NCBI RefSeq assembly: GCF_041537385.1
Contig: NZ_JBGORS010000001.1
Location: forward strand, 289,835 to 313,834
Origin: Collinsella aerofaciens
GTDB lineage: Bacteria; Actinomycetota; Coriobacteriia; Coriobacteriales; Coriobacteriaceae
DNA: 24,000 nt
Reading direction: 5' to 3'
Below are positions 42 through 1,794 of the stretch, in pieces. Position 1 is the first letter of the stretch; each line of letters begins with the position of its first letter. A model generated the notes under the pieces. That model was not told the origin of the DNA. It did not search any database and saw nothing but the letters and a program-made list of their open reading frames with translations. The position numbers and the translations under genes were made by a program.

Positions 42-1667
42 TTAGAAGAGTAGCCATTCTCCATAAACATCGGTTGAGCGGACACAATCCCTTAAAGGAA
101 GGAAAGAGCCAAGTTTTCCATGCTCAGTTGCAGTATGTACTATGCCGACGACCTGGCCCAAATCATTAAACACTGGCCCACCACTCATTCCATGACGAAA
201 TGAGCAATTCGTATAACAAAGTGTGCCTTCTTCGCTTGGATCTCCGACCCTGAGCAAATCTCCGCTGTGTAGCTCAAAGCTGAATCTAGATTCGGAAAAA
301 TGGTGTTGGTAAGCAGAAATCCTGTCGCCCTTGGCAAGCAAATCCATATTTGATGGAAGCCGGGGAATGTTTTTTAAGATCGCAGGGGGAACATCTTGTA
401 GTATTACAGCATCGTGTTTGTTGTCCTGAACTACCTCATTCCCAAATCTAAATATTGCAAGTGGCGTCTTATCTGAGCTGAATAATTTAATATCCCTGCT
501 TTTTTTATCGCGGGAAACGGCATCGCATATCACATGCCATGCCGTAACAAGACCGTAGCCAGCCAGATAAAACCCAAGCCCTTCAAATGAGTTTTGGTTG
601 CCATCCTCTCCTTCTAGATACAGAAGCGAGTCTTGCTGAAGTGCGACTGGGAAAACAGGTGTGTCTTCTGGTTTCGTTTTATTGTACAGGCTGCCTAAAC
701 GCATAAGTGGACCCGATGTCCAGGGATCCTCAATAAGAGATTTGTAAAAATCAAGACTTCCGCGTAGAGACGCTTCAAACGACCCTCTTTCTGCATCGGT
801 AAGCTTGGCAATGGTTTTACCGTAATAGCAGCCCATCGCGCCTTCAATGTCGCCATTGCTAAGTCGATGGAGCGTTGAGCGGAGTCGCCGATATTGCTCG
901 CGTTTTATATTTGTCTTTTGATTGCAGACAACGCCCGTGACCAGTTGTCTTGAAAAACTGCAACTGTAAAACGATTTATCCTCGTTGAGCTCAAACGATT
1001 CGGTTCCATGAAAGTTAGTGATTGCGTTTCGTAGCTTATTGGGCAACCTGAGCTTTCCACCTGAATAAAAATTTCGATAAAAGAAGTAAGAACTTTTAAA
1101 TGAGAACGTAAGATCATCGGCATATCGAGAGTATTGGTATCGATATTCTCGCGATAGGTGCATTAGCTGTTTATCCATACCGAGGCAAATCATGTTCGAA
1201 ATAATAGGAGATGAGGGAGCGCCTTGAGGGAGTCCTTTCGGTGTCGCAACAATCCTTGAAATACAGAATGCAACTTCAGGGGTTAGACCTAACTTCTTGG
1301 AAACAAGAAGCCCGTACACTCGTCTTGACGAGATAGAAGGAAAGAAGTCCTTAATATCCAGGCCAACAATTACTTGCGAGCCAATGTGATTTTCAGCATT
1401 TGTTTTTATTGACCGTCCTTTGACAAAACCATGGACACAAGGCAATGGCTTATAGCCTTTTTCAAGCTCAGAGGCGATGAGTCTTTGAGCCCTTTTTAAA
1501 TCAGATCTTGGGATTAATAGTTCTCGATAGCCACCGTTTCTTTTTGGGACCAATCTATTTCTATATAGGTCATACATGGAAGTTGGATATACAAAGAGAT
1601 CAAGCTTTTCCAAGGACAGGCCAAGAAAACCAGCCAGATCGCCTTTCGACTGAAGTTCGTTGAGCAT
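42..1667 (-). CDS. Retron-type reverse transcriptase fused to a C-terminal trypsin-like serine protease domain
   Basis: From ORF 42..1754. RT motifs: RNGGYRELLIP, VHGFVKGRSIKTNAENH, GLDIKDFFPS, GLPQGAPSSP and the catalytic YADD box (YSRYADDLTFSF), plus the retron-typical RQLVTGVVCN. The C-terminal ~190 aa carries His/Asp/Ser triad contexts TAWHV, HDAVILQ and GMSGGPVF. I place the start at the internal ATG at 1667: AAGGA lies 7 nt upstream and the N-terminus becomes MLNELQSKGDLAGFLGL. The longest ORF would start at 1754. Confidence 0.88.
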   Translation of the reverse strand: MLNELQSKGDLAGFLGLSLEKLDLFVYPTSMYDLYRNRLVPKRNGGYRELLIPRSDLKRAQRLIASELEKGYKPLPCVHGFVKGRSIKTNAENHIGSQVIVGLDIKDFFPSISSRRVYGLLVSKKLGLTPEVAFCISRIVATPKGLPQGAPSSPIISNMICLGMDKQLMHLSREYRYQYSRYADDLTFSFKSSYFFYRNFYSGGKLRLPNKLRNAITNFHGTESFELNEDKSFYSCSFSRQLVTGVVCNQKTNIKREQYRRLRSTLHRLSNGDIEGAMGCYYGKTIAKLTDAERGSFEASLRGSLDFYKSLIEDPWTSGPLMRLGSLYNKTKPEDTPVFPVALQQDSLLYLEGEDGNQNSFEGLGFYLAGYGLVTAWHVICDAVSRDKKSRDIKLFSSDKTPLAIFRFGNEVVQDNKHDAVILQDVPPAILKNIPRLPSNMDLLAKGDRISAYQHHFSESRFSFELHSGDLLRVGDPSEEGTLCYTNCSFRHGMSGGPVFNDLGQVVGIVHTATEHGKLGSFLPLRDCVRSTDVYGEWLLF

Positions 1668-1686
1668 CAGATTATCCTTAAAGTTA

Positions 1687-1794
1687 ATAGCCGGTTCCTC
1701 CGTAGAGTCGTACCTGATAGACACGTAGCAGAATATAATGTGCAAACAAAGCACTTCCGATTGCGATGCGCAAACGCTAATTCGAACCGGCTAT
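1687..1794. repeat. 11-bp perfect inverted repeat ATAGCCGGTTC (1687-1697) / GAACCGGCTAT (1784-1794) with an 86-nt spacer, ending 20 nt upstream of the proposed RT start
   Basis: Read directly from the sequence. The related 8-mer TATAGCCG recurs at 2111-2118. Confidence 0.9.

Follow-up and report, generated by a model that had tools for sequence, protein, structure and literature searches.

Mestre et al. 2020 (PMC7736814) defined type XI retrons by the fusion of a clade 8 reverse transcriptase (RT) to a trypsin-like protease, and dedicated PADLOC models exist for their recognition. The protease effectors of retrons were named as yet unstudied by Millman et al. 2020. Here we describe an RT-protease gene of the gut commensal Collinsella aerofaciens, which lies on the minus strand at one end of a 24,000-nucleotide stretch of contig NZ_JBGORS010000001.1 (assembly GCF_041537385.1, positions 289,835 to 313,834; hereafter the window). 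The locus is probably a complete, apparently functional type XI retron, in which a promoter, a 108 nt non-coding RNA (ncRNA) of the msr-msd type and a gene for a 541-residue fusion protein together form a single-gene defence module.

The closest characterised relative of the protein, and also the closest with a solved structure, is Eco2 (Ec67), a type I-C1 RT-Toprim retron that is likewise a single polypeptide of clade 8. In Eco2, the branched multicopy single-stranded DNA (msDNA) acts as the scaffold of a trimer in which the fused Toprim domains are caged; once this msDNA has been degraded by DenB, a phage nuclease, the Toprim nuclease is released and cuts tRNA (PMC12916289, PMC12405507). Type XII (RT-TIR) is a sister architecture in the same clade, with a C-terminal TIR domain (NAD+ chemistry) in the place of the protease. 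Mestre et al. 2020 (PMC7736814) could model the ncRNA of type I-C but found none that was recognisable for type XI, and a 2026 survey still counts type XI among the types that have no covariance model (CM). However, ncRNAs were validated for type XI in the census of Khan et al. 2024, whose supplement gives ncRNA and reverse-transcribed DNA (RT-DNA) sequences for three retrons (Mestre-1122, -1143 and -1163). These have the same domain architecture, in one open reading frame (ORF), as the window protein:

Census terminal 1122, Sphingomonas: ncRNA of 116 nt, RT-DNA of 55 nt
Census terminal 1143, Nitrospira: ncRNA of 140 nt, RT-DNA of 72 nt
Census terminal 1163, uncultured Ruminococcus: ncRNA of 156 nt, RT-DNA of 82 nt

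The minus strand of the window carries an ORF at 42..1754 that would encode 570 amino acids if read from a GTG, and this was the extent given by a first-pass annotation of the sequence. All of the motifs quoted there (VHGFVKGRSIKTNAENH, YADD, QLVTGV, TAWHV, HDAVILQ and GMSGGPVF) are present in the translation, but the start has to be moved. Sequence comparison places it at the ATG at 1667, so that the gene occupies 42..1667 and encodes 541 amino acids. We prefer this start to the GTG at 1754 because alignments to homologues and to hidden Markov models (HMMs) all begin near residue 31 of the 570-residue frame, which is this ATG; because an AAGGA sequence lies 7 nt before it; because in-frame stops occur four codons (locus L001) and two codons (L007) upstream of the equivalent ATG in relatives; and because RefSeq annotates 541 amino acids. 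Gene callers give the same length, and the RefSeq protein name is generic. The linker in L001 also carries a 1 nt indel. The 29 additional codons (1668-1754) are retron ncRNA read in frame and are non-coding, and the GTG at 1754 falls on the position predicted for the 5′ edge of the msd. The gene and its parts are as follows (residues of the domains and of the triad in 541-residue numbering):

42..1667, minus strand: RT-protease gene, 541 amino acids plus stop, product identical to RefSeq WP_372540961.1 (Collinsella aerofaciens)
1675..1679, minus strand: putative ribosome-binding site AAGGA, 7 nt before the ATG and kept in relatives
678..1667, minus strand: retron RT domain and helical linker, residues 1-330, from RVT_1, PADLOC and Foldseek
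1386-1400, 1113-1124 and 933-941, minus strand: RT motifs NAENH, YADD and VTG, respectively, as located in the gene
45..635, minus strand: S1C (DegP/HtrA-like) serine protease domain, residues ~345-541, from Trypsin_2, the triad and Foldseek
534-536, 411-413 and 183-185, minus strand: catalytic residues His378, Asp419 and Ser495, respectively, of the triad

A different situation is seen in L013, whose RT is 79% identical and whose 90% cluster has 38 members. There the conserved start ATG is replaced by ACG (L013:3088-3090), and translation would begin either inside the ncRNA, at a GTG or TTG, or at a TTG, GTG or ATG further downstream, unless this copy is defective.

Profile comparisons assign the N-terminal part of the protein to the retron RTs. 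Pfam detects RVT_1 at residues 69-263 (570-residue numbering, E 2.4e-17), and the best PADLOC model for the window protein is RT-Protease_XI (E 5.7e-105, residues 31-556), followed by RT-TIR_XII and RT-Toprim_I-C, which match the RT part only. When the RT domain is scored by itself, the type XI model gives 299 bits, type XII 290 bits and type I-C 267 bits, whereas all other retron types reach 238 bits or less. This places the domain in clade 8, to which Mestre et al. 2020 assign type XI and which it shares with types I-C and XII, by HMM ranking rather than by phylogeny. Retron models of NCBIfam score 192-228 bits. The features by which retron RTs are generally recognised, namely YADD, the NAxxH of region X and the VTG of region Y, are all present, and among 36 diverse homologues YADD, N90/A91/H94 and V243/G245 (541-residue numbering) are invariant or nearly so. 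A profile made from these 36 homologues matches the RT of retron Ec67/Eco2 at E 3e-90, then those of Ec86, Kva2, Ec83 and Ec78. An AlphaFold2 model of the protein is confident (pLDDT 89.1, pTM 0.75). By Foldseek, its N-terminal ~370 residues match Eco2 at E 1.5e-22 over 374 columns, a fold match that runs past the RT into the helical linker, and other retron RTs come next.

The C-terminal part is a protease of the S1C type. Pfam detects Trypsin_2 at residues 392-538 of the 570-residue frame (E 7.4e-13), which like the RVT_1 match is far beyond chance, and by Foldseek the C-terminal ~200 residues of the model match DegP, DegQ, DegS and MucD (E ~1e-10, rmsd 3.2-3.5 Å). The triad H378/D419/S495 is invariant among the 36 homologues, which have ~30% identity, and aligns with the catalytic residues of Mycobacterium tuberculosis HtrA1 (VTAWHV with VTNAHV, KHDAVIL with KTDLAVL, and GMSGGP with GNSGGP). 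The fusion of a retron-type RT to a trypsin-like protease, the RT motifs and the complete-looking chymotrypsin-fold triad reported by the first-pass annotation were all upheld by these comparisons, including the structure prediction that it had proposed as a check, in which the C-terminal domain superposes on DegP, DegQ and DegS. The domain also has a weak match to the Lamassu protein LmuA (E 2e-5).

Although fold, triad and the context of the GNSGGP-type serine motif are those of HtrA, DegP, DegQ and DegS, the window protein is cytoplasmic and RT-fused and has no signal peptide. Pfam detects no PDZ domain, and the protein ends directly after the protease domain. Members of the HtrA family carry at least one PDZ domain; the protein therefore has the character of an S1C protease domain without belonging to the HtrA family, and its protease is presumably regulated by nucleic acid rather than by PDZ-bound peptides. 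Taking the protease fused within the RT frame, its intact-looking triad and DegP-like fold together with the RT placement and the ncRNA, we regard the RT-protease and its RNA as almost certainly a type XI retron of clade 8.

Conserved sequence extends well upstream of the start codon. When the upstream regions of close relatives (RT identity 72-89%) are aligned, a sharply bounded block reaches from CTGGTAAAAT to the start codon, and the flanks are unrelated. Within it lies an element that is exactly 108 nt long in 17 of 17 close loci and is separated from the ATG by 19-20 nt. Six close relatives share 92-97% of it with the window copy, and L007 shares 82%. The RT coding sequence of these relatives reaches 80-85% (L007: 73%) and their flanks about 30-73%, which points to stronger constraint on the ncRNA than on the coding sequence. 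The element folds with -36.9 kcal/mol (z = -3.6) into a terminal stem, formed by the a1 and a2 arms, and four hairpins. Its parts in the window are:

1801..1809, minus strand: putative extended -10 element TGGTAAAAT, 6 nt upstream of where the ncRNA begins, from conservation
1687..1794, minus strand: retron ncRNA (msr-msd), 108 nt, from conservation, a1/a2, fold and CM
1784..1794, minus strand: a1 arm ATAGCCGGTTC, perfect 11 nt complement of 1687-1697, with 99% of cells paired across variants
1687..1697, minus strand: a2 arm GAACCGGCTAT, the other half of the 11 bp terminal inverted repeat
1783, minus strand: candidate branching (priming) guanosine G12, an invariant G directly 3′ of a1
1758..1776, minus strand: msr hairpin 1, CGUUUGCG-CAU-CGCAAUCG, with an 8 bp stem

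The adjacent msr-msd, the a1/a2 repeats and the conserved G beside a1 are general hallmarks of a retron. Another is msDNA with a 2′-5′ link to the RNA, the production of which the census showed for its three type XI retrons. CM alignments match G12 with the G that follows a1 in the distant loci L020, L032 and L026; another candidate for the branching residue is G18 (window 1777), which stands in a UUAG context. The single U-U mismatch of hairpin 1 is replaced by A-U in L007 and by U-A in L001. Substitutions among nine close variants are compatible with pairing (U-A to U-G, G-U to A-U and U-G to C-G), and 92.7% of cells are paired across these variants as compared with at most 42% when the partners are slid. 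In all close relatives the conserved block is bordered upstream by CTG(G/C)TAAAAT, one copy of which lacks the base between TG and TAAAAT. The conservation of this sequence suggests promoter function at 1801..1809; a generic two-hexamer promoter scan missed the -10 box because of the weak -35.

Similar elements precede distant type XI genes. We assembled 16 distant loci with RT-protease fusions, which were classified by an HMM from alignment A1 after tblastn with the protease domain had proved too insensitive for this purpose. No more than 250 nt upstream of the RT, each of the 16 loci carries an inverted repeat with a stem of at least 8 bp and a span of 90-160 nt. In 11 of them the repeat has 9-17 bp, while repeats of at least 9 bp occur in 4.9% of 247 control windows and 3.4% of 320 shuffled sequences. 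A CM built from the Collinsella variants only was run unfiltered on 89 kb of distant type XI loci, and its three best matches fall on inverted-repeat elements (L020, E 0.014; L032, E 0.022; L026, E 0.37), as does the sixth best (L038, E 1.3), with E-values whose calibration is rough. A model-guided alignment, A3, was not used to count pairs, as the near-palindromic a1 and a2 arms gave antisense self-matches.

The three validated ncRNAs connect these predictions to sequenced RT-DNAs. The Sphingomonas ncRNA is closely similar to the predicted elements of L020 and L032, and hairpin 1 of the Nitrospira ncRNA matches that of L086. Hairpin 1 of the Ruminococcus ncRNA (UCGUUAGCG-UUA-CGCAACGG) matches those of L024 and of the window (GCGUUUGCG-CAU-CGCAAUCGG), and the window hairpin also resembles hairpin 1 of L018 and L046. 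The layout is the same throughout: a1, the G, a short spacer, hairpin 1, an A/U-rich run, the msd, a purine-rich GG motif and a2. With 108 nt, the window ncRNA is among the shortest of type XI (103-159 nt). We consider it very probable that 1687-1794 is the ncRNA of the RT-protease retron.

With default filters, the same CM also matches an element (E 0.025) upstream of L046, a type I-C RT-Toprim retron of Lachnospiraceae. This element (L046:2828-2960) has an 11 bp a1/a2 repeat of its own and a GCAUCGC apex in its first hairpin. Because L046 shares this apex and is matched by the CM, the ncRNAs of clade 8 (types I-C and XI) appear to be related, and the sequences suggest common ancestry. Two short motifs were noted in the census ncRNAs and in L021, L024, L038, L046 and L050. 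The first, an AAU|GU-like junction, marks the end of the RT-DNAs sequenced for terminals 1163, 1184 and 1195; the second, (A)AGGNR|G just 5′ of a2, marks the start of those of 1143 and 1163.

The boundaries of the msd can be predicted from the sequenced RT-DNAs. When these are mapped to the validated ncRNAs, the template ends at N|GA(A/G) beside a2, preceded in 1143 and 1163 by the purine-rich GG motif (AAGGCG|G and AAGGUA|G), and its start lies behind an A/U-rich run, a few nucleotides 3′ of hairpin 1. The equivalent sites in the window are ACGGAG|GAACC before a2 and GAA|GUGC at the other end (AUAA|GUG or AUAU|GUG in close variants). From these regularities the msd would comprise ncRNA positions 41-97 and give a predicted msDNA of 57 nt, starting 5′-CTCCGTAGAG and reading in full 5′-CTCCGTAGAGTCGTACCTGATAGACACGTAGCAGAATATAATGTGCAAACAAAGCAC-3′. 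If synthesis stopped at the stronger AU-rich run AUUAUAUU, the msDNA would possibly have only ~34 nt and end near 1731. With ~57 nt or less, the predicted product compares with 55-82 nt measured in type XI; the window msDNA is a prediction, whereas the census RT-DNAs were sequenced. The predicted parts are:

1698..1754, minus strand: predicted msd (msDNA template), ncRNA positions 41-97, boundaries transferred from the three sequenced type XI RT-DNAs
1740-1754, minus strand: hairpin 2, within the msd
1732-1739, minus strand: AU-rich run, within the msd
1709-1725, minus strand: hairpin 3, within the msd
1698-1707, minus strand: hairpin 4 with a UACG tetraloop, within the msd

The closest genomic matches of the retron come from Collinsella aerofaciens and Collinsella sp., with 85-97% identity. 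A protein identical to that of the window is present on 14 contigs, and the cluster at 90% identity holds 1,732 sequences. Protein identity is 72-98% within a small Collinsella group and ~30-40% outside it. The host, an actinobacterial gut commensal, is unlike those of other type XI retrons. Genes on either side of the RT-protease gene differ among close relatives, and only the promoter, ncRNA and gene are common to all, which agrees with the PADLOC description of type XI as a single gene. This modularity was read from the relatives, as only 41 nt of the window follow the stop codon; the first-pass statement that no separate effector lies downstream could thus not be read from the window, but it is supported by the relatives, in which the downstream genes all differ. 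ORFs of 53-54 amino acids downstream of the RT in relatives were considered as a hidden partner and rejected, being not homologous to each other.

Metagenomes contain truncated or rearranged relatives that are 80-100% identical (P0004 and P0010-P0014). Among these, P0010 (458 amino acids, 99% identical over 64% of the query) has PF12873 in place of Trypsin_2, and P0014 (308 amino acids) consists of the protease part only. They could represent assembly breaks, frameshifts or domain swaps.

Several other explanations of the locus have to be weighed. RVT_1 is a generic domain, and weak matches to the group II intron RT model (TIGR04416, 56 bits) and to Drt2 (34 bits), Drt3a (31 bits) and Drt4 (18 bits) might be taken to indicate an RT of another lineage (group II intron, DRT/UG or Abi) fused by chance to a protease. 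These NCBIfam scores are far below the respective cutoffs of 300, 390, 200 and 450 and contrast with 190-300 bits for retron models; the best PADLOC matches and the top structural matches are all to retrons, the retron-specific NAxxH and VTG are present, and Rfam found no group II intron RNA in the window. The HMM placement that the first-pass annotation had called for thus returns a retron RT and neither a group II intron nor a DRT/UG/Abi enzyme, and we give a chance fusion almost no credence. A more substantial alternative is that the 108 nt block is an ordinary 5′ leader, a regulatory element of the mRNA acting on translation or stability, and that the RT makes no msDNA. An Rfam scan of the whole window at E ≤ 1 gave no match of any kind, so that no family is available for the ncRNA; covariation among the close variants is not significant; Mestre et al. 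2020 recognised no type XI ncRNA; and some retron subsets in the census yielded no RT-DNA. However, the block carries the defining a1/a2 terminal inverted repeat, the same architecture recurs before all 16 distant type XI RTs at a frequency far above controls, the element matches others that are proven RT-DNA templates in three type XI retrons, and the RT keeps all catalytic and retron-specific motifs. We consider a simple leader improbable. Still less probable is a decaying or domesticated remnant with no present role in defence. The ACG start in L013 and the truncated or rearranged metagenomic relatives would fit such decay, but the window ORF is intact with all catalytic residues, as are its ncRNA, ribosome-binding site and -10 box; the ncRNA is constrained more than the coding sequence; and the protein is found unchanged on 14 contigs and has a 90% cluster of 1,732 sequences.

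With regard to the function of the protease, the main rival is that it is a processing enzyme, which acts in self-cleavage or maturation or activates an unlinked pro-toxin, rather than a killing effector. HtrA-family proteases are usually regulated, selective enzymes, which would fit such a role. Protease-activated proenzymes are also known in bacterial immunity, from nuclease-protease pairs (PMC12799240) and from a trypsin-MBL (metallo-β-lactamase) module (10.1101/2025.09.03.673762). In these systems, where proteases are paired with nucleases or MBL hydrolases, and in the protease variant of Lamassu LmuA, the immune output has a trypsin fold, as in the window. However, other defence proteases act on a co-encoded proenzyme, whereas no partner gene is kept beside the RT-protease in close relatives, where neighbours vary by locus, and PADLOC calls type XI a single gene. 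A linked substrate is disfavoured because of this lack of a conserved partner, and we judge the processing role unlikely. The protease is the likely effector, as the first-pass annotation had proposed, because it shares an ORF with the RT and relatives keep no conserved partner gene.

Some observations weigh against a complete and functional type XI retron, or at least temper it. The Collinsella protein is a divergent branch of the type, with ~30-35% identity to the rest, and scores 350 bits with the type XI HMM as compared with 541-608 bits for other members. The triad is judged to be intact from the HtrA1 sequence alignment and the fold superposition. Covariation in the nine close variants, whose element is 94% conserved, amounts to one double change, which does not exceed the shuffle control, because the element is too conserved. 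For the distant loci the CM E-values are modest and the comparison used an alignment made partly by eye. The predicted msd is short and lacks the long stable hairpin typical of classical msDNAs, and one validated type XI retron gave very little RT-DNA (0.02x Eco1; Khan et al. 2024). The searchable literature holds no report of a defence phenotype or mechanism for type XI, in keeping with the first-pass remark that protease-fused retrons have been little characterised, although the class already had a name and three of its RT-DNAs had been sequenced. Finally, the gating model set out below is borrowed from the Toprim-fused Eco2, and its transfer to a protease may not hold.

For the complete type XI retron that we favour, the following course of events can be proposed. 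The first base of a1, ~7 nt downstream of the extended -10 box, would be the start of transcription, and a single transcript would serve as both ncRNA and RT-protease mRNA. The a1 and a2 ends would pair, and the RT would bind msr hairpin 1, prime from the 2′-OH of G12 (window 1783) and copy the msd from G97 (window 1698) towards hairpin 1, yielding a branched msDNA of ~57 nt, or possibly ~34 nt. By analogy with Eco2, which is the likely model for control of an effector caged by msDNA, the complex of msDNA, RNA and protein would hold the fused DegP/HtrA-like protease inactive. A phage factor that degrades, modifies or binds the msDNA would free the protease, which would cleave host (or phage) proteins and so abort the infection. 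We put forward this msDNA-gated mechanism tentatively, as a possibility that falls somewhat short of probable.

The analogy has its limits, as the effector of Eco2 is a Toprim RNase that targets tRNA, whereas that of the window is an S1C serine protease whose target would be protein; trimer, DenB-type trigger and caging are known for Eco2 and extend to type XI by analogy only. A trimeric caged protease is plausible because HtrA proteases and Eco2 both have the trimer as their basic unit. The most specific form of the proposal, in which a nucleic-acid-gated DegP-like protease, possibly a trimer, is freed by phage attack on the msDNA and cuts a specific essential host or phage protein, is more doubtful than the general mechanism. 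We infer msDNA production by the Collinsella copy, gating of the protease and a defence phenotype, and the one observation in this analysis that supports anti-phage activity is the location of the retron.

That location is the edge of a chromosomal defence island. A complete Gabija pair, a PifA-like gene, a Dsr1-like gene and an MNT/HepT pair all lie within 12 kb of the retron. The neighbouring genes are:

2263-3408, minus strand: ORF of 381 amino acids, LPxxG-anchored surface protein, upstream of the retron on the same strand
3588-4242, minus strand: overlapping MNT-like nucleotidyltransferase (99 amino acids) and HepT-like RNase (130 amino acids), HEPN/MNT toxin-antitoxin
4357-7881, minus strand: Dsr1-like SIR2 protein, 1,174 amino acids, N-terminal SIR2_2
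7929-10175, minus strand: PifA-like KAP NTPase, 748 amino acids, PifA match at E 5e-64
10262-11860, minus strand: GajB (UvrD helicase), 532 amino acids, PADLOC E 5.5e-154
11853-13616, minus strand: GajA (AAA_15 and OLD-like TOPRIM), 587 amino acids, PADLOC E 9e-184, overlapping GajB by 8 nt

The protein at 4357-7881 is Dsr1-like over its first ~270 residues only, and the other ~900 have no assignment. Directly upstream of GajA, an ORF of 183 amino acids (13621-14172, minus strand) has no Pfam or PADLOC match and may either belong to the Gabija operon as an accessory gene or be unrelated to it. The product of the 381-residue ORF at 2263-3408 likewise has no Pfam or PADLOC match; it contains a region rich in Thr and Pro, and its end (LPKAGD, then hydrophobic residues and a basic tail) resembles a sortase (LPxTG-type) anchor. 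Local GC content is 56-60% there and 44-46% for the retron, and homologous sequence coding for the C-terminal part also precedes the retron in L008 and L011.

Further along, 14481-23992 encodes a transglutaminase-like protein, a protein with a ricin-type lectin domain and a locus of the cell-wall polysaccharide or teichoic-acid type (epimerase, IspD/TarI-like cytidylyltransferase, LicD, flippase, GT2 and EpsG-like genes). Surface-glycan loci are common determinants of phage receptors, and the position of this one beside a defence island may not be accidental. A phage origin of the region was rejected, since blastn found no similarity to 50,697 phage records and no tRNA was found in the window. 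On the other side of the gene, ~275 nt after the stop codon are 74-77% conserved in a subset of relatives (L011:4735-5010, L012, L013 and L014), and the last 41 nt of the window are similar; the region is absent from L001, L007 and L008. On the RT strand it contains a peptide-like fragment, TYAGK..GSGF.G.IKLADFV, which is frameshifted in L013 and has an inconsistent start. The region is probably what is left of a gene at the ancestral insertion site.

The Collinsella locus is a good specimen of a known class and not a new kind of system. The class has been known since 2020, and the present analysis adds a corrected gene start, the limits of the ncRNA and a prediction of the msDNA. Type XI ncRNAs, which were unrecognisable in 2020, share a findable architecture with type I-C and with the three validated type XI retrons, which should aid their annotation, and the two clade 8 motifs might let the ends of RT-DNAs be predicted from sequence. 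Type XI belongs to the retron classes without a published phenotype, trigger or substrate, and proteolysis as an output would set it apart in kind from retrons with the nuclease, NADase and membrane effectors that have been studied to date. The window supplies a delimited unit from a prevalent human-gut commensal, with promoter, ncRNA, gene, predicted priming G, predicted msDNA and catalytic residues. If the gated protease is real, it would be the first retron with proteolysis as its output and a new mode of regulation for S1C proteases, for which the compact Collinsella unit (~1.8 kb with its 108 nt ncRNA) would be a convenient model.

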